A DNA stretch of 21,262 nucleotides from a virus, in UHGV virus genome UHGV-0196349; one strand, 5' to 3'. The notes under the pieces are model-generated. The model was not told where the DNA came from. It searched no databases and saw only the letters and a list, made by a program, of their open reading frames with translations. The stretch's first letter is position 1; the number at the start of each line of letters is the position of its first letter. This document shows positions 1-11,623 of this stretch, piece after piece. A program made the position numbers and the translations under genes.

Positions 1-251
1 TCACTCTGCCAGATGGCGCAATGCCATCTGGTATCACTTAAAGGTATTAAAAACAACTTTTTGTCTTTTTACCTTCCCGTTTCGCTCAAGTTAGTATAAA
101 AAAGCTGAACGAGAAACAGAAAACACTGTAAATATCAATATGTTATGAAGGATTTAGTCTAAATAATAGACTGCATAATACTACAAAACACAACATATCC
201 AGTCACTATGAATCAACTACTTAGATAGTATTAGTGACCTGAGGCAGAGCA

Positions 252-292
252 TTAGCGCAAGGTGATTTTTTGTCCTCTTGCGCTAATTTTTT
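252..292 (+). terminator. Candidate intrinsic terminator: perfect 10-bp stem TTAGCGCAAG/CTTGCGCTAA with a 15-nt loop, followed by T6
   Basis: Inverted repeat 252-261 / 277-286 read directly, then TTTTTT at 287-292. No ORF of 60 aa or more ends just upstream. The loop is unusually long. Confidence 0.45.
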
Positions 293-548
293 GTCAACGG
301 ACTGGGTTAGTTGAATTTACAACCATGCTCAGTATCTCGATAAGCGCAGAGAAATGATGCAGTGGGGGCGGACTGGATTGATGAGAAGGTAGAGTGATCC
401 GCCTTAACAACTATCGAAGAGCACAAAGCCTTGTGTGTCTCATAGGCTATGAAACAATCATTTTACATGGTTACTTCACTACTTCCGCACAATATGATAT
501 CGTTCACAATCTAAAAACATTAATAATTTATCCATTACCGCGGTTAAT

Positions 549-575
549 GCCCGTCGCTTCCAACGGGCCTTTTTT
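549..575 (+). terminator. Candidate intrinsic terminator: stem GCCCGT/ACGGGC, 8-nt loop, then C + T6
   Basis: Stem 549-554 / 563-568 and T-run 570-575 read directly. It sits inside the weak 61-aa ORF 394..579, which argues that ORF is not coding. Confidence 0.5.
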
Positions 576-721
576 GTAAATTATATTTTTATTACCTTAT
601 ATTAATATTGGTAATATGTCTGCATGATGTTTTATATTTAATTTCGTTGACGTCAATGTTTTTTGCCAATGTACTTACTTCTTTATGTGAGCAGTTCATA
701 TTTTTGACGCCAACGAAACAT

Positions 722-3667
722 TTAGTGCTTCCCTTCTATTAAGTCTAACCTAGCTTTTATCTTATCCATTTCTCTGCGCTGCCATGCCGCCTCGATATAG
801 AATAAGAGATCAGGCCTGACCCCCCATCTAGATCCTGCTGGCGTTATTTCAACGCGCTCAATGATGTCTTCCATTACCATCACTGGATTATCATCCTCAT
901 CAACAATGATGCTCCCGTCATTATCAGTCAGCGGCATTTCCCTTTGGCCAGTAATGACGTCATCATATACTGCGGGATAATCGTCATAGCAAAGAAACGC
1001 ATAGCGGCATGTTGTGCTTTCTTCTTCCATGAGTCCGTGAGAAATAAGAACATCACGAAGTTGCTGCGCGATTACACCATGATGTATCCTCGCCCCTTCT
1101 TCCCCCTTTATAGCGACAGCGTTCAGCCATTTATAAGCGATATACCTGACGTCACCCCAGGCATCCAGCAATGTTTCGTCAGGAGAGACCGGCTCTGTCT
1201 TTAATGTTCCGTCACTGGTAACCACAGGATTGGAGCCAAGATAAACTATCGAGAACCTGTTTCCCGGACCACCAAGAGCATTTACATTATCAAGATAAGG
1301 TTTAACATCTCCGTTCTCAAAAAGATGTTCGAGTGCGTTATATACCGCGCGACGTGGAGTACTGCTTCTGGAACCATGCAACGTTATCATTGCACCATCT
1401 GCTGAAGACGTTGTTTCACCGCCGCTAACGATTAATCTCTGAGCGGTAACATCATCAGACGGTACTTTCTTCGCAATAATGGCGTAATTACCCTCAAGTT
1501 TGACTTCCGCGCGAACTTGTCCTGATGTACCTGCATGGACAGTCAGTGACTGGACGGCAACATCATCTGTGAAATCAACGGGTACAGGAACCGTCCTCAC
1601 GCCTGACGTCGACATAAAAGTAGGAAGCGTTCTGTTAGGAGTGGCTCCGTAGACAAAATCCCTTGAAACAAATTCTTCCTGTTTAATTTTCACCCTGAAA
1701 CAATACAAATCAGCCGGGTGACCATCGTGAACATAAGGATATTTTCTGTTGTTATCCCCTATGCTCCATGGGTTTAGAAAGTCTTCCCCACCGAAAATGT
1801 AGTACAGCCAGTTGTCTTTGATACAAACTGAACCAACACCAACCGCAGAGTTAACTATTCCGCCCTGATAAATCTGATCAGTAACATTAACCCACTCTAC
1901 ATTATCCAGACTCCACTCATTGACGTTAACTCTGGTCATAAATGTTCTTGGATAATTTCCTGCATAACGGTTATCAGGTTCTCCTCCTTCCCACTCACCA
2001 AATGCGCGCTCACTGCCAAAAATAATCAGCTCATCGCCAACTTTGGCAAAAGGAAGGTTTGAGTGATGAACATTATTTGGGAAGCGAAGAGAGTTCCATG
2101 ATGTACCTAAATCAGAGCTTCTGTGCAATGAACTACCGGGTTGAGTACTTAATGTCCCCCTGGTCGTCAGATACAGAATGCCATCATAATATTTTACACA
2201 TGGCTCAGATGCATTCGCCTCATATTCTACAGGTATGCGTCTGCGAACAAAGCTACCAGGAGAACCGAAAGCATCAGAGAAATAGAGTATCCCAAGCTCG
2301 CGTGGACCAATATCACCATTATGGTAGCCAACAGCAAAACTGTTATCGCTAATCGTCGCAAAACTGTGAATCTCAGTAACAGGAGTGCTTCCGTCAACAA
2401 AAGAAGGAATAGTTCCAAGACTGGTTTTTCTCCATGGTGACGAGTGAAATGATGTACCAAAACTCCAGTATCTACCCTCGTTATTCTGATCCACATCCTG
2501 GGTATTTTGCGTCGTAACTGTAAAGGTATTTTTATCAATAACAGTAGTCACCGTCATATTCCCGGTAACATCTGTAACACCAGAGTTTGAGAAGTTGACA
2601 AAATCACCAGCAAATAATCCGTGATCAGTAATGCGAATATAAGCGACTTGCTGATTTGCTGCTTTCGTTATACCACCATAAACGCGAAGGCTGCGACTCA
2701 TTGGGCGATCCCACAACTCTGCAACCTGCAGTTTATTTCCTCTCACGGTCCGCGTCTCAATTACAGCAAAAAGGCGATTTCTGACAACCCCCATACTCAT
2801 GCAGTGATAGTTAACTGTGGGATAGTTTTCATGTAAATCTGTAAGCCATTCCGGCGTTGTCCAGGTCTTCCCGTCATCTCCTGAGCGAACCCATGCAACA
2901 TGGAGGTTATTTACACCATGGCGGTCTCCAGCCATAAAAGGCGCATAGATGACATTGTCATATACAAACGTTTTATCCTGCGTCCAGGCGTTGTACCACG
3001 GTGTATCTGTAATTTTAAATAACTCTCCCTGGATAAAATCTTCAGAAGCATAAAAAAGAGGCTGACCCGGTATTCTCTCAAATAAAAAACGAGCATTTTT
3101 AAATCGACTGACATCTGGAAGAGTTGATACTTTAAAAGTAAGCCCTCGCCCATCTATCTTTTCACCACCTGTTGCAACAGAAAGTAATTCTGATAGAGCT
3201 GATGTATCATCATGAACACCATCACCAATAGCCCCCCAACCTCTTACATCATAACTGTCTCTCCATCTTGCTATCTGAAGTTTTGGGTATTTATTCGCTC
3301 CATCTGGGTCTTCTAATTGCTGCCGTAGTTGATCAGGGTCATACTTCAGCACATTAGGAAAATAGAACTGCTGCGCACCATACGCATCATAAACAGCCAT
3401 AGAATGGCCTTGCACGGTAACGAATTTGGCAATCTGTCCGTTATATACAGGATATCCAGCAGCGTTAATGATTATTGGTTGCGAAACAGGAACGTGAGAA
3501 CCGTCTTCGTTTTCCACATAAACCTGAATCTGGTTTTCAGGATTTACAGGGTCAGTGTCAATTTTACCGATATAAATTTTGCCATTGGCTACGGCTTTAA
3601 AAGAACGCGCCATAGTGAAGAGTTGCGAAGGCATCGATACGATCACATTGGCTGTAATGTCTCTCAT
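722..3667 (-). CDS. Chimeric tailspike: P22 gp9-type N-terminal head-binding domain + endo-N-acetylneuraminidase (K1 polysialic acid endosialidase) + C-terminal intramolecular-chaperone autocleavage domain
   Basis: 981-aa ORF. The N-terminus ([10 protein letters not shown]...[33 protein letters not shown]...[14 protein letters not shown]...NVLKYDPDQ) is near-identical in pattern to the P22 tailspike head-binding domain. Asp-box sialidase motifs are present ([16 protein letters not shown]). The C-terminus has the S74-type motif [11 protein letters not shown], with a Ser...Lys dyad at the expected cleavage serine (codon at 1214-1216). ATG at 3667 with GGAG about 11 nt upstream. Confidence 0.85.
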
Positions 3668-3725
3668 TTAATTTGCTCCAGACACAAGGAATCGCCGCAG
3701 CATGGCTACGGTGAATTTTGGGCAT

Positions 3726-3748
3726 AAAAAAACCCAGCCGAAGCTGGG
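3726..3748 (-). terminator. Intrinsic terminator between ant and tailspike (CCCAGC-UUCG-GCUGGG + U7)
   Basis: On the minus strand: 6-bp GC-rich stem, UUCG tetraloop, then 7 U. It lies 20 nt downstream of the ant stop. P22 has a partial terminator at the same ant / gene 9 junction. Confidence 0.7.
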
Positions 3749-3767
3749 TCGTTGCGTTGGTTATCTG

Positions 3768-4703
3768 TCAGTAGTTATGTACTGAAGGAGGTAATTCTTT
3801 ATTCTTAAGTCTCATCCATGCGGAAAGATTCGTTGGTCCATCTGGCTCATTGATATCAACATCTCGTGTATGGTTGATTAAAACATCTCTCGCCATATCG
3901 ATAATACGGGAGAACTCATAACCGCAGTCATGACATCTGCCGGAATAGTTCGATTGAATTTGTTTCAGCGCCGGATACAGTTCGCGGAATAATGCCTGTG
4001 AGCGGTTGGCATAATCCCATAACCATACAAGGCTGTTTGCTTCTTTTGCAGAAAGCTCGTCGGTTTTCTTCTCTTGTTTGCCAATGAACTCACCTTCAAG
4101 CGGAACGCGAGCAGCAAGTGACAGTGCTTCGGTAAACTGCTCCTCACTGATTTCTTTGTACGAACATCCAAAATGGGATTTCAGTGACGACCACATGGTG
4201 ATCATCGCCTTAGCCTGTTTTTCTTTTGGCAGAGACTGACCGCGACTCATGACGAGTTGTTTAATGGCTTCCTGCTGTTCAGTGGTGATTTTACCCGGCA
4301 ACGCCTTTTTAGATTTGCGTGGGTTAACTACATAGCCTTTAGTCCAGTAGTCATGCAGCACGCTAAAGCATTCCTCCTGGTACTGAATCAGTTTATCACG
4401 GATGTCAGCACGAACTTTCTCAGGGTTGATGCTGAACAGCCATCCATTTAACTTCTTCAAAGGAAGGCAGAGTAGCTTACGAAGCTTCCCATCAGCGGCA
4501 ACCATGTTCATATGAACACAGTTGAATTTGCTAATCTGCTTCATGAGTTTTGTTTGCTGCGTTGACCAGCTCATTCCAAGGTTTTCAACGATTGGCTTCA
4601 TCGCAACATATGCAACTCCGGCAGCAATGGCGGTGATAATTTGCTGACCGTTGAATGGTACGTAAGAGGTGTTCACTGCTTCTAAAATTGCTATACTATT
4701 CAT
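3768..4703 (-). CDS. ant: Antirepressor Ant
   Basis: Translation from the internal ATG at 4703 begins [43 protein letters not shown], matching the P22 Ant N-terminus. GGAG lies 9-10 nt upstream. The ORF-track start at 4769 is an in-frame upstream extension that overlaps the preceding gene. Confidence 0.85.
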
Positions 4704-4765
4704 GTTGGTTTTTCTCCACGGATTTACTGACAACCGAAGCCCTGACTGTTCCCGCAGTTGGGGCT

Positions 4766-4969
4766 TCAACTTTCTGATCTATCAGTTATATCTTTCCCTT
4801 CATATACTTCACCTATATTGCTAATGCTGGCAGAACATCCAAGATGCTTGTATCTTATGATGTCCAACACGCAGTCACTACACAGCATCCGACCTGTTTC
4901 TTTAGAGTAAATGTATGTTTGATCAGCGTCTGATTCGCTAATGCCGCAGAAACAACATTCTTTACTCAT
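4766..4969 (-). CDS. Small Cys-rich protein (CxC...CxxC, putative zinc-ribbon) inserted between arc and ant
   Basis: 67-aa [39 protein letters not shown]... Its ATG overlaps the arc stop as ATGA (4969-4966), suggesting translational coupling. No recognised homolog. P22 itself has no gene at this position. Confidence 0.5.
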
Positions 4970-5118
4970 ACCATTACCCCCTCTCTCTTCAAGCTGTCTA
5001 TCAGGCGCTTGATAACCTCTGAGTTAAACGACCTGCACTCTTCCTTTGCCCTGCTACCTATAGCATCCTTTAACGACTGCGGCATCCTTACCAAAATCTT
5101 ACTTATTTCTTTCTCCAT
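4966..5118 (-). CDS. arc: Arc-type ribbon-helix-helix repressor
   Basis: 50 aa from the ATG at 5118 (GGAGGG SD 5-6 nt upstream): MEKEISKILVRMPQSLKDAIGSRAKEECRSFNSEVIKRLIDSLKREG. The motif ..RSxNSE... and overall alignment match P22 Arc. The ORF-track start at 5154 is a TTG extension. Confidence 0.8.
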   Translation of the reverse strand: MEKEISKILVRMPQSLKDAIGSRAKEECRSFNSEVIKRLIDSLKREGVMV

Positions 5119-5232
5119 GTTACCCTCCACACAAACAACTCTTTTCGAATACAAAAGATATCAAAGTGAGTATATCTAGTCAAAATTTTTTTGCATACAC
5201 TTTGCTATCAAATTGAATACCAAAGGTGTGAT
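5119..5232. promoter_or_regulatory. Divergent immI control region (Pant leftward, Pmnt rightward) with candidate operators
   Basis: Minus strand: -35 TTGACT (5183..5178), 17-bp spacer, -10 TATCTT (5160..5155). Inverted repeat AGATAT-N10-ATATCT (5156..5177) overlaps the spacer and -10. A second inverted repeat TCTTTT-N7-AAAAGA (5140..5158) lies over the predicted start site. This mirrors the P22 O-arc / O-mnt layout, but the sequences differ from P22 operators. Confidence 0.4.
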
Positions 5233-5481
5233 ATGGCAAAGGGTGTGTCAATTTCTCCAACTACGGTAAGAATCCCTGAATCTTTACGCGAGGCTCTTGC
5301 TGTCAGAGCATCAAAAAATGGTCGCTCTGTTAACTCCGAGATCGTCATGATTTTGCAAGCCGCGATTGATGAAGATAGGTCGCCAAAGTCAGTTGAGTCA
5401 TTTGCTCAGCAAGAAGCTGACAAATTCAAAGAGGCGCTGCTTGAGACGCTAAAGACCATGTATGGTAAGGATGAAAAATAA
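5233..5481 (+). CDS. mnt: Mnt-type ribbon-helix-helix maintenance repressor
   Basis: 82 aa from the ATG at 5233: MAKGVSISPTTVRIPESLREALAVRASKNGRSVNSEIVMILQ...LETLKTMYGKDEK. The RHH core ..NGRSxNSE.. and P22 Mnt-like length fit. It is transcribed opposite to arc-ant, as in P22 immI. Confidence 0.8.
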   Translation: MAKGVSISPTTVRIPESLREALAVRASKNGRSVNSEIVMILQAAIDEDRSPKSVESFAQQEADKFKEALLETLKTMYGKDEK

Positions 5482-6017
5482 TGCTGCACACAATTCATTT
5501 CTTATGCCCCGTTAACACTGCCACTGTTGGGCAACTTCAGAACCACTGTCTCACCGCATTATCTCAAGGCGCAACTGAATTAAATATCCATATATCAAGT
5601 CAGGGAGGGGAAACTGCCGCTGGCTTTACTGCGTATAACTTTCTTAAGTCACTCCCTGTTACCGTTAGAACTCACAACATAAGCAATGTTGAATCCATAG
5701 CTAATATCGTTTTCCTGGCTGGCTCAGAACGTTTCGCAAACCCATTATCAAGATTCCTGTTACATCCTCTATTATGGTGCTTTGCCTCCCCAGCCGCCGA
5801 CCATGCCAGATTGAGAGAGTACGGGAAATGCCTCGATAACGATCTTGATCGCTTCGTTGAGACGTTCAATATCGACATCGGAACCCATATTAGGTGGGCA
5901 TCCCTGATAGCAGACTCGACCATTTTGGATGCTAACAAGGCTCTTGAGCATGGCATAATTAATTCCATAAAAACTGCAAGGCTGGTATCCAATCAGGCAA
6001 ACTGGTGGGTTGTTTGA
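5481..6017 (+). CDS. ClpP-fold (Clp/crotonase-like) serine protease-like protein, coupled to mnt
   Basis: 178 aa. The start overlaps the mnt stop (TAATG). It aligns by eye to the ClpP core: IHISSQGGE ~ YINSPGG; AAGFTAYNFL ~ TAGMSIYDTM; NVESIANIVFLAG ~ GQAASMGAFLLTAG (nucleophile Ser in register); RFLLHPL ~ RVMIHQPL (His in register). It is shorter than ClpP and lacks the N-terminal axial region. Confidence 0.7.
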   Translation: MLHTIHFLCPVNTATVGQLQNHCLTALSQGATELNIHISSQGGETAAGFTAYNFLKSLPVTVRTHNISNVESIANIVFLAGSERFANPLSRFLLHPLLWCFASPAADHARLREYGKCLDNDLDRFVETFNIDIGTHIRWASLIADSTILDANKALEHGIINSIKTARLVSNQANWWVV

Positions 6018-6046
6018 TGGGTAAATCATGATTACTCCTTATAAAA

Positions 6047-6082
6047 AACCCACCTGACGGTGGGTTAATTTTTACCTTTTTT
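6047..6082 (+). terminator. Intrinsic terminator after the ClpP-fold gene
   Basis: Stem AACCCACC/GGTGGGTT (6047-6054 / 6059-6066) with a TGAC loop, followed by AATTTTT and a second T6 (6077-6082). It lies 30 nt after the stop. Confidence 0.55.
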
Positions 6083-6155
6083 GGACCATATTGACTACTC
6101 ATAAAATGAGATCAATATTTAATCGCCCAATAACGGGTGCATGTTGAGGTATATC

Positions 6156-6335
6156 ATGGCGAAAAAACCAGGTGAAAACACAGGAAAAAACGGCGGAATA
6201 TACCAAGAAGTTGGCCCACGCGGCGGTAAGAAAGACAATTTTGCCACCGTCAAGGACAACGAAAGGCTTCCACCAACAACAAAGCCAGGTCATGGCTGGG
6301 TATTGGATAAGCGAACTCCAGACAGCAAAAAGTAA
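6156..6335 (+). CDS. Small basic Gly/Lys-rich protein, possibly YjzC-like family
   Basis: 59 aa from the ATG at 6156 (GAGGT 7 nt upstream): MAKKPGENTGKNGGIYQEVGPRGGKKDNFATVKDNERLPPTTKPGHGWVLDKRTPDSKK. The GxYxExG...W...KR pattern recalls YjzC-like small proteins; this is from memory and unverified. It is followed by a hairpin + T-run. Confidence 0.5.
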   Translation: MAKKPGENTGKNGGIYQEVGPRGGKKDNFATVKDNERLPPTTKPGHGWVLDKRTPDSKK

Positions 6336-6340
6336 TACTC

Positions 6341-6363
6341 AAGCCGGGTCACTCCGGCTTTTT
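6341..6363 (+). terminator. Weak intrinsic terminator (AAGCCGG-loop-CCGGCTT + short T-run)
   Basis: Stem 6341-6347 / 6354-6360, 6-nt loop, then TTT. The stop codon of the convergent minus-strand ORF lies in the loop. Confidence 0.4.
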
Positions 6364-6714
6364 GATATGTCGCTCGCAGAACTCAACAAGCCTGCTCATT
6401 AAGTAGCAGTAAGTCTCATTGGCTCTTCCTGGTTCAACATCAACACCGACCCTTGAGCAGATATCGAATGCCATGTGAGCGCACTCATGGGCAATAGTAG
6501 ATAGTTTGCCATTGAACACGCCTATCACATGCAAAACACCATTCTCGCTGCTCATTGTATGAGACGCTCCGTTGGCGTCCGAGTCATGCACGTCAACGCC
6601 AAGTTTTTGATGCAGGCGTTGCCATTCTGGAAAGTCTCTACAAAACACAATTGTACCGCTCTCAAAGAGCGGAACGAGCATCTTTGGTACGTTTCCAATG
6701 TTAACTTTTTTCAT
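6349..6714 (-). CDS. Small HExxH-motif protein (putative minimal zinc-metallopeptidase-like)
   Basis: 121 aa from the ATG at 6714 (AGGA 4 nt upstream): MKKVNIGNVPKMLVPLFESGTIVFCRDFPEW...STIAHECAHMAFDICSRVG... It contains a single HExxH motif. The family is not recognised. Its 5' end abuts the divergent plus-strand gene, about 30 bp between starts. Confidence 0.5.
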   Translation of the reverse strand: MKKVNIGNVPKMLVPLFESGTIVFCRDFPEWQRLHQKLGVDVHDSDANGASHTMSSENGVLHVIGVFNGKLSTIAHECAHMAFDICSRVGVDVEPGRANETYCYLMSRLVEFCERHIKKPE

Positions 6715-6744
6715 GGTATCCTGCTCAAAACTAAGGAGCTTGGT

Positions 6745-7134
6745 GTGAAGCAATTTCTTGCTGCTATGTTCTTATTCATATCTTTTGGGGCTACAGCAGA
6801 GTGCTGGGTCGTTGGAGATATGCGCGGAATAAGCTATTCAGAACGAAATAATTTCCATCCGGAAGAAGATGGTTTTAGTGGAACATTCATCATTAAGACA
6901 AGCGGTGAAGATGCCAGCATCACATATTCTGGGACAGATGCGGGCGGCATGGCTTACAAAGCATTGTCTAAAAACTCCATCATAGGAATCGGCGCGAATG
7001 GCGAAACTCAACGCGTTATCGACTCATGGGTAATACATCCTACTGGAACAGTTTTAATGTCAAAAACCATTTCTGGTTATGGGAATATGGATTCAACCAA
7101 AGCTTTTGTTGGAAAAGTAAAAAGAAAATGTTAA
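6745..7134 (+). CDS. Signal-peptide (secreted/periplasmic) protein of unknown function
   Basis: GTG at 6745 with TAAGGAG 6 nt upstream. The N-terminus MKQFLAAMFLFISFGATA|ECWVV has a basic n-region, a hydrophobic core and an A-x-A-like cleavage site; it is not a lipobox. The mature protein is about 111 aa, Gly/Ser/Thr-rich, with Cys near both ends. The in-frame ORF-track extension to 6529 overlaps the opposite-strand gene and is discounted. Confidence 0.55.
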   Translation: MKQFLAAMFLFISFGATAECWVVGDMRGISYSERNNFHPEEDGFSGTFIIKTSGEDASITYSGTDAGGMAYKALSKNSIIGIGANGETQRVIDSWVIHPTGTVLMSKTISGYGNMDSTKAFVGKVKRKC

Positions 7135-7158
7135 CGATTGAATCCAATTCCCCATACG

Positions 7159-9000
7159 TTACTGCTGTGTTGCCTCAGTAGCAAGCAGCGGCCTGATGGC
7201 ATTTGCAGCGTTACTCAACGCTCTTTCATAGGCTGGTGTTCCTGCTTTGGTGTTTGCCAGACGTAAGAGCGCATTCCTTGCTGCTTTGGACTCATACAAG
7301 CGCATCATTGCACCGAAACCAGCCTCAAGCCCCATTGATACGCCAAGAGTCGCAGTTGCGCCAATCGTCCTTATCCTGTTGGCTTGCGATTGCCCCGTCT
7401 GAGTTACTACATTTGCGGTGTCTGACCTTGCTGTTTGCTGCAGAACTTCATGAAGAGCATCAAGTTCTTTCATGTGCTTTCCAGAAAAAATAGTGTTGTA
7501 AATTTCACCGCCTGACTGAGATTTCAGCTTATTAACTTCAGTGATGAACTTGGCTGGAGAGTCACCGGCCTTTTCCGCTATTTTGCTGACGTAAGCTGCA
7601 CGCATAGCATCTTTCCCTTTATCATCCAGTGCGCTCCAGATTCGTTTCACGTCAGATGGTTTTCTGCTTAATACAACGGTATTTATAAGTTCAGGACTGG
7701 CTTCACTGCTTGCCTTGTTGAGTTTGTTAGCAATGTTTTTATTAAGCACCTTATTATAAACGTTTGCATAATCGGAATTTGCTTTAAGGTATTTTGCTGC
7801 GTCTGATGCACCGAGGTTTTTAGCAACTGCGTTACGAAGGTCTTTTGACATTGCATTCTCTACCATATTGGTAGCTGCTTTTGCCTGGTTGGGGAAGACC
7901 ATAGCATCTCCCTGAACATTAGATCTAAATGCTGTTCTGTGCTGACGCAAGAGATCAAACGTAACATCCAAATCAGTTGCAGGGTTTGCTAATTCTTCAC
8001 GTAGGTTACGCAAGGATGTAAGCAGGCTTTGATTGGCAGACGTCCCAAGTCGTTCCTGTCTTGCGATCGCTGTATTCAGAGCATTCATGGTATTTGTGGT
8101 ATCAACTGCGGCATTACCCATTTTATTGGTGACGTCATTGATAACAGCGCCAGCGGCATCCTTCCTCCCCCTTAACGTGGTGGTCAGAGATTTCACCACA
8201 TCATCAGGGTTGTACTCACCAAAACGGTCAAAATAATTACTTACCAGCTTACTACGCGTTGCATATTGCTCCGCTCGCTTTGAGCCTGTCCCGAGCAAAG
8301 CCCCCTCGGCATCCTGAGTAAGGCCGCGAGTGAAAGCATTTTTCGGCGGGATAACATCAGATGTCATTGGTGTCACGCCCATCGATTCTGATGTGGCAAT
8401 TTTCTTCGCCACTTCTGGCGCAATATCACCTTTTATAGCCGTTATTCCACGCCCTATTCCCTTTGCTGCGGCGGAAAGAACACCCTGAGCGGCAAGGTTA
8501 ACTCCGGCATTTTTAGCTGCATTTTGTGCGAAATCGCCTTTCTGATTTGCGGCCTCTGCCAGTGATCCAATAGCCATGCTTCCTGCCGTTCCAACTCCTG
8601 GAACTAAATACCCACCAATTGTTTCACCGGCTTGTGCGTAGGGGTCTGTCGGTCTGTCTACTGGACGATAAACATCATCCAAAACCTTGGGTCCACCAAG
8701 CCCCTGACTGATTGCATTAATCAGACTTGCGCCACCCTGCAATACGTCAAATGGTATGTTTACCAGACCACGACCAGCCTGTTCTGCAATTTGCTCTGCA
8801 CTTTGACCACCAGTGAGCCAATCGCCAGCTTGTTGCATCAATGATGGTTCTTCCCGTGTTGGTGCATTATTGGCCTGATTAACTGTTTGTTGCTGAACAG
8901 CCTGACCAGCAAAATACTCATCAATGGCGGTGCCAATATCTTCGGTGCTCGTACCATCAGGAAAGGTAAATGTCTTACCGTTTGCAGTTACTTTCATCAT
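7159..9000 (-). CDS. gp16: Ejection (injection) protein gp16
   Basis: 613 aa, [30 protein letters not shown]..., recognised as P22 gp16-like. The ATGA overlap with the gp20 stop and the synteny 7-20-16 both fit. Confidence 0.85.
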
Positions 9001-10463
9001 TCCACCGTAAATTGAATGCCTGATTTTGAGGTATATGATCCGGATTGACTCTGCTGCTGTTGGGTATTTGTCGGTTGTTGGCTATTGCTCTGTTGTTGAC
9101 TATTTGCAGCACTTGAAACCACCAAAGCATCATAAACGCGACCAGACTGACCACGTAATGAGTTATATTGGCCCTGCATTTTTCGCATTTTTGTTTCAGT
9201 AGCAGCCTTGGAATCACCGGGCTGAGGGAGGTACATTTTGGAATACTCCTGCATCTCTGGCAGAGTAATTGCTGCACCTGTTTCTGGGCGCAAAATTGCA
9301 TACAAGGCGTCTCTCGCATTTACCATATATTGCTGCTCCGCTGGTGATAGGCTTAAATTTGCAATAGTTCCATCACCAAGAGAGCGATTTATTAATGCAA
9401 CTCGCTTAGGGTCAATGCTTTTACTAAGCTGATTCATTGAGTCCATTGAATCTTTTAATCGCAAAGCAAATCCCGCCGCCTTCTTGGAACCCTCATTAGC
9501 CTTATCTATGATGCTTTGCGCTTGTGGCAAGCTAATTGGTTTAATGCCATCACCAGATATAGGTTGGTTTAGTTTTCCGGCTTCCTCGCTGCCATCGGTG
9601 TAATACTTAGTTACCGAGCCATCAGGATTGGTTTCAACCTTAAGTAATTTCTTAGCATTGGGATTAATTCCCGCCGCTGCCGCAAATGCCGCTGCACCAT
9701 CTGGATCTACCTTTAACATTTGCGCGTACTGATTGTAATTCTGCATTGCGGCTGTTGGTGCATATGCTGACGTTAACGCATTTGCTCGGCTAATATCCTG
9801 CCCTCTCGCCTGAAGTGCTTCACCAGCCTGATTGCTGCGGATTGTCTCTGCCAGTCTGCCTCGGTCAATCTCACGACCAGCCATCTTGTCCTGAACATTG
9901 AAGTAATCAATCGGACCAAGAGCAGCCATCCCAAGGTGATCAACAAACTCACCAAATCCTGAAGGATTCTGCTGATACATCTGAGCAACGTTATTAGGGT
10001 CAACACCGACGCGAGTCAGTTCCTTGGCGTTGTTTTGCAGCCATGATTGCATTGCTTCTGGAGACGAGGCCGCAAGGCGTGCGCCAGCCGCTAAGGTGCC
10101 GATAGAATTGCGCTGGTCTTCATCAATGAATCCCATGCCTTTGCGAACAGATTCAATCTGGTCTGGATATTGAGTAGCCAACTGACGCAAAGCACCGCGA
10201 TCACCAGACGCATAAGCATTAGCGTACGCCTGCTGAAATTCTTTCTGCCGCTGAGCCTGCTTTTCCTGCTGAAACACCCCTGCAATACCTGAAAGGCCTT
10301 GCAAAGCAGTCAGCCCAACATTGTTAGCGCCTGAACGCTCAATATCATTGTTCTGCCTGATAAGCTGAAGCGTATTGCCGATGTCATTTACGCTCGGAGC
10401 GTTTGAGTTGACACCACCGATACCAGCCAACAATCCGCCATTTGTTCCTTGCCAAGTAGCCAT
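8997..10463 (-). CDS. gp20: Ejection protein gp20
   Basis: 488 aa. Position and size match P22 gp20. The C-terminal tail is Q/S-rich. Confidence 0.8.
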
Positions 10464-10472
10464 GATTACCCC

Positions 10473-11165
10473 TTAAAACAACGAGCCAAGCAGGCCAAGT
10501 CCGCCGCCAATTGCCGCACCTAATCCAGTGCCAAGTCCTGGAACAATAGAGCCAAGAGCAGCGCCAGTCATAGCCCCTGAAGCTCCGCCGCTAATTGCTG
10601 TCTGAAGGCCTGATGGTTTATTGGCATTAGCAGCGGCAAGAGCCGCACTTTGCTGCGAAATCTGACTCATGTTGTTGGCATATGTCTGCCCGGCGTTTGC
10701 CTGACCTTGCAGCGCACCAAGGCCAATGTTTGCCAGGTTGTTGTAGTTGTTCATCTGACCAGACAGCCACTGCTGACCAAGCGTTGGTGCGATTGTTGCT
10801 AACTGATTACCGGTTGCAGTGGAACCCAATCCACCTGTTGCTTCCGCTGCCGCCAGACTCTGATAGCGAGCCTGACCAGCAAGATCTTTGTACTGCTGAG
10901 AGTTGTAATACTGGTTAAGTGCCTGCCCCTGACCTTCTAAACTGGAAAGGTTCTGAAGCTGGTTAACATACTGCTCCGCAAGAGGCGTGAACGGAGCAAG
11001 GTTTTTCATGATCGTCTGCCACTGCTGATGTTGCAGGTCTGCGGCATACTTCTGAGCTTCTGCTGCATACTTTGCGCTTTTATCGGAGCCACCCTTCCCG
11101 CCTTTTTCAGGGTGATAAGGTTCCTCGCCGCGCAGTTTTCTGCCCAGCTTAAATGCATATAACAT
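10473..11165 (-). CDS. gp7: Ejection protein gp7
   Basis: 230 aa, MLYAFKLGRKLRGEEPYHPEKGGKGGSDK..., recognised as P22 gp7-like. The C-terminus is Gly/Ala-rich. Confidence 0.85.
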   Translation of the reverse strand: MLYAFKLGRKLRGEEPYHPEKGGKGGSDKSAKYAAEAQKYAADLQHQQWQTIMKNLAPFTPLAEQYVNQLQNLSSLEGQGQALNQYYNSQQYKDLAGQARYQSLAAAEATGGLGSTATGNQLATIAPTLGQQWLSGQMNNYNNLANIGLGALQGQANAGQTYANNMSQISQQSAALAAANANKPSGLQTAISGGASGAMTGAALGSIVPGLGTGLGAAIGGGLGLLGSLF

Positions 11166-11167
11166 GG

Positions 11168-11623
11168 CTATCTCCCGTGATTCAGGAAGTCGATTAGTTC
11201 TTCGCGTGTGGCGCTGTAAAAAGTCACGTCATCCACGCCTTTGAAGTATTTCTTGATGGTTCCTACACGCTTAAGGCCAATAATTGCGCAGTACATCTGC
11301 CCGTGGCGGAATTTGCGTGCAGCGAACGATGTGACGCACTGAACGGTGGTGTTAGTCAGAATGTATCGCCAGAACGCCAGCCCGATTTCCTTGCTGAATC
11401 CGCGAACCTCTGGCAGGTACATGGCGTGGCAATCGAATGTAAGCGGCTGAATCTCCTGGTAGTAAACAATGCCGCCAAACTGACCGTGCACGTTAACCTC
11501 AAAGTAACGGCATTCAGGCTTGTAGTCGTATCCATCACCGTTGTTGCTTCCAGCAATAATGTCAGGGTGATTTCCTACTGCTTCTATCAGGTCGATGTTT
11601 CGCGTTGGTTTGAATGTAATCAT
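11168..11623 (-). CDS. gp14: gp14-like protein (P22 gene 14 position)
   Basis: 151 aa. Assigned by synteny between gp26 and gp7 and by size; the sequence itself was not independently recognised. Confidence 0.65.
   Translation of the reverse strand: MITFKPTRNIDLIEAVGNHPDIIAGSNNGDGYDYKPECRYFEVNVHGQFGGIVYYQEIQPLTFDCHAMYLPEVRGFSKEIGLAFWRYILTNTTVQCVTSFAARKFRHGQMYCAIIGLKRVGTIKKYFKGVDDVTFYSATREELIDFLNHGR

Follow-up and report, generated by a model that had tools for sequence, protein, structure and literature searches.

Gene content of the window and features of positions 1-721

The DNA analyzed here, referred to as the window, is a 21,262-nucleotide stretch of the viral genome UHGV-0196349, and our analysis centered on its first 721 bases. 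This region had been described in a first-pass annotation as AT-rich, devoid of any convincing ORF, and located downstream of a tailspike gene, and each part of this description held. The GC content of 1-721 is 36.2% (compared with 47.8% in the remaining window), and it falls to 26.7% in 576-721. The adjacent minus-strand ORF at 722-3667 contains the Pfam domains Head_binding, End_N_terminal, End_beta_propel, End_beta_barrel, End_tail_spike, and Peptidase_S74; it encodes a tailspike that joins a P22 head-binding domain to endosialidase domains, and it is homologous to siaK1 of phage CUS-3. Farther along the window, genes for a P22 antirepressor, coat protein, portal, and large terminase were found. 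The antirepressor gene (P22-type; Pfam P22_AR_N and P22_AR_C) adjoins the tailspike gene at 3768-4769 on the minus strand.

Within 1-721, the longest ORF encodes 61 aa (394-579, GTG start), and none of the ORFs is credible. The 61-aa ORF was rejected as a gene because it overlaps the end of an integrase remnant and extends across the terminator-like hairpin at 549-575; other ORFs of at least 20 aa in the region were likewise rejected. The sole coding-derived DNA in 1-721 is the integrase remnant itself, which comprises 28 frameshifted codons. The record of vB_EcoP-720R6 annotates a 'hypothetical protein' at approximately window 395-742, whereas other annotated relatives do not. A 50-aa minus-strand 'hypothetical protein' annotated in phage 434 was also not adopted, because it overlaps both sib and the integrase remnant; in the corresponding region of the window, the minus-strand ORFs (294-410 and 307-426) have TTG starts. 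The features recognized in and beside 1-721 are listed below by coordinates, strand, nature, and basis.

1-90, plus strand: host chromosome, B' arm of attR, ybhB-ybhC intergenic DNA starting directly after the ybhB stop codon (match to lambda attR and attB)
7-33 (stem 9-31), plus strand: host stem-loop about 6-8 nt past the ybhB stop codon, without a U-tract behind it (folding)
91-105, minus strand: lambda att common core GCTTTTTTATACTAA, attR crossover (15/15 identity)
106-245, minus strand: lambda-type P arm of attR (82-86% identity to lambda, HK97, and 434)
133-145, P arm: IHF H2 motif (motif scan)
about 165-177, P arm: X2/Fis region, diverged (motif scan and alignment)
185-197, P arm: Xis X1 motif (motif scan)
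200-209, P arm: Int arm-type site P2, CAGTCACTAT (motif scan)
211-223, P arm: IHF H1 motif (motif scan)
231-240, P arm: Int arm-type site P1, inverted (motif scan)
246-295, plus strand: sib retroregulation site including the tI terminator, with stem-loop 251-286 and T6 287-292 (homology and fold)
296-314, no strand: linker from sib to the integrase remnant, partly common to 434-type genomes (alignment)
315-398, plus strand: dead 3' end of an IntS/CUS-3-type tyrosine integrase gene, last 28 codons, with a 1-bp deletion causing a frameshift (translation compared with CUS-3 Int)
399-548, plus strand: non-coding 3' flank of the CUS-3-type int gene (CUS-3 alignment)
549-575, plus strand: GC-rich hairpin followed by T6, terminator-like (terminator scan and CUS-3 homology)
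576-721, no strand: AT-rich spacer from the 549-575 terminator-like hairpin to the tailspike stop codon, containing the empty neuO site (26.7% GC and CUS-3 alignment)
722-3667, minus strand: tailspike gene, endosialidase, specific for the K1 capsule, last phage gene before attR (Pfam and CUS-3 homology)

Attachment core, P arm, and host flank

When annotated phage records were searched, window positions 87-433 matched the attP region of lambdoid phages, among them 434, HK97, and HK106, and positions 1-296 matched the lambda-bio transducing phage DN1 across its annotated attR. The 15-bp core at 91-105 was identical at all 15 positions to that of lambda, HK97, and 434, and it is annotated as the att core in HK97 and 434. 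A motif scan placed core-type Int sites at the flanks of the core, namely B' CAAGTTAGT at 87-95 (plus strand) and C CAGCTTTTT at 99-107 (minus strand).

Two alignments were made. In one, the window was set against the DE3 attR of lambda and the HK97 and 434 attP sites; in the other, against the empty attB of K-12, the attL of the related lysogen MS20659, and the attP of HK97. In the latter, four-way alignment of attB, attL, attR, and attP, the partners switched exactly at 91-105: window 1-105 is identical to the K-12 ybhB-ybhC attB, with divergence after 105, and the layouts are P'-core-B for attL and B'-core-P for the window. This switch at the core places the prophage-host junction at 91-105. 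The first-pass annotation had raised such a junction as one option and had proposed comparison with E. coli genomes to separate phage from host DNA and to locate attR. That comparison bore the suggestion out, inasmuch as positions 1-90 are host DNA, found in 5,415 of 5,426 complete E. coli genomes, and the attR core follows at 91-105.

In the P arm, the P1, P2, H1, H2, and X1 motifs were found at coordinates identical to those in the lambda DE3 attR under an identical scan. No match to X2 was found in the window at three or fewer mismatches, whereas the same scan located X2 in lambda at 165-177; by eye on the alignment, the X2 region of the window resembles the 434 version. For these P-arm sites (Int arm, IHF, Xis, and X2/Fis) we use the names established in the lambda literature. 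The window thus shares with the lambda attR (P-O-B', at the gal-bio site) an identical core, the same P-arm offsets for five motifs, and a B' arm that is exact with respect to the K-12 attB and matches the DE3 lysogen junction at 89 of 90 positions. It differs in that its P arm is 82% identical to that of lambda and closer to that of 434 (86%), in its X2/Fis region, and in the phage that lies behind the site, which is a P22-like podovirus here and a lambda-type siphovirus in the case of lambda.

The host side of the junction was equally well defined. Positions 1-90 are identical to the empty attB of K-12, match the host side of the lambda attR in the DN1/DE3 record at 89 of 90 positions, and bear no relation to the HK97 and 434 P' arms. 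In the DN1 record, ybhB ends at position 1500 and window base 1 matches position 1501; the window therefore begins within the host chromosome, and the 9-31 hairpin is of host origin. This hairpin (CCAGATGGC-GCAAT-GCCATCTGG), reported by the first-pass annotation as a perfect 9-bp stem, was confirmed at 9-31, and in the RNA fold it comprised 11 pairs with a dG of -19.4 kcal/mol (z = -4.8). It lies within the host part that is common to essentially all E. coli genomes. The proposal that the whole region might be the 3' UTR of a host gene holds for 1-90, which lie immediately downstream of ybhB, but not for the rest of 1-721.

Positions 1-7628 of ON470605.1, deposited as 'Escherichia phage vB_EcoP-720R6', carry host uvrB, bioD, bioC, bioF, bioB, bioA, and ybhB to the left of attR. 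That record is not a packaged phage genome but a prophage cut out together with flanking host DNA, which explains its match to the host part of the window.

The hairpin at 251-292 and sib retroregulation

Immediately beyond the P arm, 48 of the 50 positions at 246-295 (96%) are identical to lambda, HK97, and 434. This segment aligns to the annotated 'sib retroregulation site' of HK97 and to an annotated terminator of 434, and homology to lambda and HK97 stops abruptly at 295/296. A plus-strand hairpin followed by T6, which the first-pass annotation had placed at 252-292, is indeed present at 251-292 (ATTAGCGCAAGG...CTCTTGCGCTAAT followed by TTTTTT), with a dG of -19.8 kcal/mol and a z of -5.5 in the fold of 246-296. 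Both this predicted fold and that of 236-310 (dG -28.6, z = -4.1) share their architecture with the fold of the lambda sequence. In read-through RNA, the stem is predicted to lengthen through pairing of GGCAGAG with the U-tract, in the window as in lambda. Relative to the core, the element of the window is placed just as in lambda, and it retains the hairpin and U6. Its loop is longer by one U, and an internal mismatch of the stem carries a U-to-C change, but the predicted helices are unchanged. In both HK97 and 434, int (plus strand) is followed by the core and then by the sib/terminator element (plus strand), so that the element lies on the int-sense strand across the att core. A lambda 'antisense RNA' annotated past sib in the DN1 record was set aside as irrelevant, since lambda homology ends at 296.

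The roles of RNase III and exonuclease in sib retroregulation are known from classical lambda work. As a site distal to int, sib lowers Int expression from pL, whereas transcripts from pI escape (PMC2951348, PMC5300877). By analogy, in the circular form of the present phage sib would lie downstream of int across attP. Transcripts from pI would end at tI and be stable, whereas N-antiterminated pL transcripts would pass tI, form the extended stem, be cut by RNase III, and decay in the 3'-to-5' direction into int. Integration would split sib from int, allowing an induced prophage to make Int and Xis and to excise; the P-arm sites at 106-245 would act in this excision together with attL. Judged by its homology, the first terminator is the lambda sib/tI element, which would be part of the int transcript made once the phage has excised and circularized. 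Its orphan appearance follows from integration, which severs int from sib and leaves sib alone at attR with int approximately 40 kb away at attL. Homology and folding likewise suggest that RNase III processing and tI termination would operate on the window's copy. Moreover, since tI faces host ybhB in the prophage, it would also be expected to stop host read-through into the prophage.

Integrase remnant and the hairpin at 549-575

Beyond sib, positions 296-330 are 67% identical to 434 and unrelated to lambda and HK97, and E. coli matches that begin at window 301 occur in remnant contexts only. The translation of 315-398 reads IYNHAQYLDKRREMMQW, is interrupted by a 1-bp deletion, and continues as ADWIDEKVE* in the next frame, while CUS-3 Int ends in IYNHAQYLDKRREMMQWWADWLDEKVE*. 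Given that the CUS-3 int gene ends at 1349, the alignment identifies window 315-398 as the last 28 codons of that integrase. No full-length integrase ORF with a catalytic domain was found at 315-398, where only these 28 frameshifted codons are present, and PGAP calls the segment a partial pseudogene in both MS20659 and IAI39. It is a remnant, not a gene. The similarity to CUS-3 extends well beyond it: window 315-640 corresponds to CUS-3 1266-1591 (98.8% identical), a block that includes the whole int flank at 399-640, and window 630-760 corresponds to CUS-3 2434-2564 (99.2% identical).

Positions 315-433 match the intS 3' end in a large share of E. coli genomes, and 2,058 genomes have some match to 296-640. 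In phage 434 (1715-1848) and in many lambdoid prophages, sib is immediately followed by this intS 3' remnant and 35 nt more (window 301-433). The join between a lambda-type cassette and the end of an IntS-type gene is therefore old and widely shared, and its occurrence in both 434 and P22-type phages marks a scar of module exchange that is common to siphovirus-type and P22-type lambdoid phages. Over 91-433, the window resembles the b region of 434 in its core, P arm, sib, short linker, and remnant plus 35 nt (86% identity). After 433 the two part: 434 leads into NleC/NleH-type cargo, whereas in the window CUS-3 sequence follows as far as the tailspike gene. This arrangement very likely arose when a lambda-type int-att-sib cassette replaced the IntS-type, argW-targeting module in a CUS-3-like ancestor, the remnant being the scar of that exchange.

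The hairpin at 549-575 consists of GCCCGT-CGCTTCCA-ACGGGC followed by C and TTTTTT, and its 6-bp stem includes 5 GC pairs. The first-pass annotation had called it well formed. It is present and was listed by the terminator scan, but its stem energy is indistinguishable from that of shuffled sequences (z = -0.95). Across 1-3000, the scan found 5 terminator-like sites compared with 2.4 +/- 2.1 expected, that is, no overall enrichment. In CUS-3 the homologous hairpin lies at 1500-1526, which is 151-177 nt past the int stop codon and between the convergent int and neuO genes. Most simply, then, the 549-575 hairpin would be the int terminator of the ancestral module, now situated behind a dead gene. 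Of the two hairpins designated as orphan terminators, the first is lambda sib/tI and the second a terminator-like element of the int 3' flank.

Other roles for this stretch were weighed against that reading. The hairpin might serve the minus-strand late/tailspike transcript as a 3'-end stabilizer or terminator, either instead of being an int-terminator relic or in addition to it. In the minus-strand fold its stem gains in length and stability (8 bp, -15.3 kcal/mol, z = -2.1). The terminator scan listed no minus-strand tailspike terminator in 576-721 and no other minus-strand terminator-like site between the tailspike stop codon (722) and attR, and with neuO absent this is the first strong hairpin that a tailspike transcript would meet. 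The minus-strand stem is followed, however, by AUUAACCGCGG rather than by a U-tract, the T6 being on the plus-strand side, and in CUS-3 neuO intervenes between the tailspike gene and the homologous hairpin. We therefore consider a role in tailspike transcription unlikely. Far less plausible still is the suggestion of the first-pass annotation that a plus-strand small RNA gene occupies the interval of about 255 nt between the two hairpins (approximately 293-575), with the 549-575 hairpin as its terminator. A terminator-like hairpin with T6 does close the interval, this prophage and CUS-3 are about 99% identical across it, and part of it (315-433) also sits beside sib in phage 434 and many lambdoid prophages. 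This degree of conservation is no higher than that of the flanking tailspike DNA (99.2% over 630-760), though, and the first third of the interval is the end of a frameshifted integrase ORF, with the rest being the 3' flank of that gene in CUS-3. An Rfam scan, which had been put forward as a check, returned no match at E <= 1 when the Rfam 15 covariance models were run on both strands of window 1-1000. No plus-strand promoter-like site was found in 1-573. Nor did 293-575 show excess RNA structure (z = +0.48), as 127 of 200 shuffled sequences folded at least as well. The interval is fully accounted for by the integrase remnant and its flank, and a small RNA gene here is extremely improbable.

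It is also very doubtful, if slightly less so, that the remnant and its flank (315-575) have been kept for a function, whether as the source of a 3'-UTR-derived or read-through-derived RNA ending at 549-575 or as a further block behind tI, protecting the tailspike end of the prophage from ybhB transcription. The sole hints in this direction are the presence of 315-433 beside sib in 434-type phages and many prophages, and the approximately 99% identity between CUS-3-like phages that integrate at argW and those that integrate at att-lambda. With an ancestral int terminator remaining the simplest reading of the second hairpin, both apparently orphan terminators are explained, and no new RNA gene should be called at 1-721.

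The cargo site between attR and the tailspike gene

In P22 and Sf6, cargo genes (gtrABC and oac, respectively) lie between the tailspike gene and the integration module. The first-pass annotation had pointed out that the P22 gtr conversion genes are absent from the window. This was right in kind, as cargo is indeed lacking, but the relevant cargo is the neuO acetyltransferase gene rather than gtr. CUS-3 contains two copies of the 11-bp sequence TTTTATATTTA (1581-1591 and 2434-2444), which form a direct repeat bracketing an 853-bp segment with the phase-variable neuO gene. The window has a single copy at 630-640, and the two blocks of similarity between the window and CUS-3 (315-640 and 630-760) overlap on it. 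This single copy could be either a site as it was before insertion or the product of a deletion between the repeats. The spot thus corresponds to that of P22 gtrABC and Sf6 oac, in that surface-polysaccharide-modifying cargo is found between the tailspike gene and att/int and that CUS-3-like phages carry neuO there; it differs in being empty, with one 11-bp repeat in place of the two that flank neuO in CUS-3. The window accordingly represents a neuO-less allele of a cargo site that is relevant to O-acetylation of the K1 capsule. In IAI39 and CE10, an acyltransferase gene is found at the same att-lambda junction.

Two further details were observed. In CUS-3, the last three bases of the left TTTTATATTTA copy are, on the opposite strand, the stop codon of neuO. 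In addition, a perfect 10-bp palindrome, TTGACGTCAA, occurs at 648-657 in the AT-rich spacer; in CUS-3 it lies between the tailspike stop codon and the neuO start, that is, upstream of neuO.

Prophage identity and integration site

At least 80% of the 721-base region was present in 20 complete genomes. In E. coli MS20659, the 721 bases are 99.0% identical to the window and close a contiguous prophage of approximately 41 kb. Its order is ybhC, attL, a 1071-bp int, a 219-bp xis, lambdoid early genes, P22-like head and ejection genes, the tailspike gene, a pseudogene fragment, attR, and ybhB. These combined data make it very likely that positions 1-721 are the lambda-type attR end of a P22-like prophage integrated at att-lambda between ybhB and ybhC. 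We are similarly confident that the prophage is P22-like (Lederbergvirus, CUS-3-like), with an endosialidase tailspike and a lambda-type Int/Xis module. As the window ends inside the phage, the prophage's own attL, int, and xis are presumed from relatives that are approximately 99% identical over 1-721 and that differ elsewhere, for example in immI. The antirepressor gene that adjoins the tailspike gene in the window is replaced in MS20659 by an Arc-family gene (9814-10065 of the MS20659 segment compared), indicating that the immI regions differ between these related prophages.

A second insertion site of CUS-3-like phages, between pgl and bioA, has been reported (PMC9659370), and it is the locus described here. 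CUS-3 itself resides at argW in E. coli K1 RS218. It shares with the window, in the two blocks given above, the int 3' end, the flank with its hairpin, and the stretch that follows the endosialidase tailspike gene. It differs in carrying a complete IntS-type int and the phase-variable neuO at argW, whereas the window retains 28 int codons, lacks neuO, and is joined to att-lambda by a lambda-type module.

That the attR and sib sequences might be inert relics of an older lambda-like prophage, unused by the adjoining P22-like genes, was also considered; the prophage would then be locked in or would depend on another integration system. The int, xis, and attL sequences lie outside the window, CUS-3-like prophages are prone to decay (PMC9659370), and the copy found at this site in IAI39 is degraded, containing a tail fibre pseudogene and an IS629. 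Against this, MS20659 contains a single contiguous prophage of about 41 kb, extending from attL-int-xis to tailspike-attR, in which int and xis are full-length. The core is intact, as are the Int arm-type, IHF, and X1 motifs in the P arm, all at their canonical offsets, and the sib sequence shares 96% identity with the functional element of lambda. An inert relic is thus highly unlikely, and a lambda-type attR that belongs to the adjoining P22-like prophage is preferred.

For annotation purposes, the prophage boundary can be set at 91-105, and the integration system is that of lambda-type Int acting at the attB between ybhB and ybhC. The region also provides an example of lambdoid mosaicism, in which a P22-like, K1-specific phage swapped an argW-type module for a lambda int-att-sib module and was left with a 28-codon scar. 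All of its features are of known kinds (a lambda attR, sib/tI, an integrase-gene scar of module exchange, an empty neuO site, and a documented secondary integration site), and the features of 1-721 leave current understanding unchanged.

Two further features were noted in MS20659, neither of which is in the window. A TnpB/InsQ-family gene is situated between bioA and ybhB, just outside the prophage (segment positions 4285-5415), and an IS100 is present in the early region of the prophage near xis (9728-11529 of the second segment).
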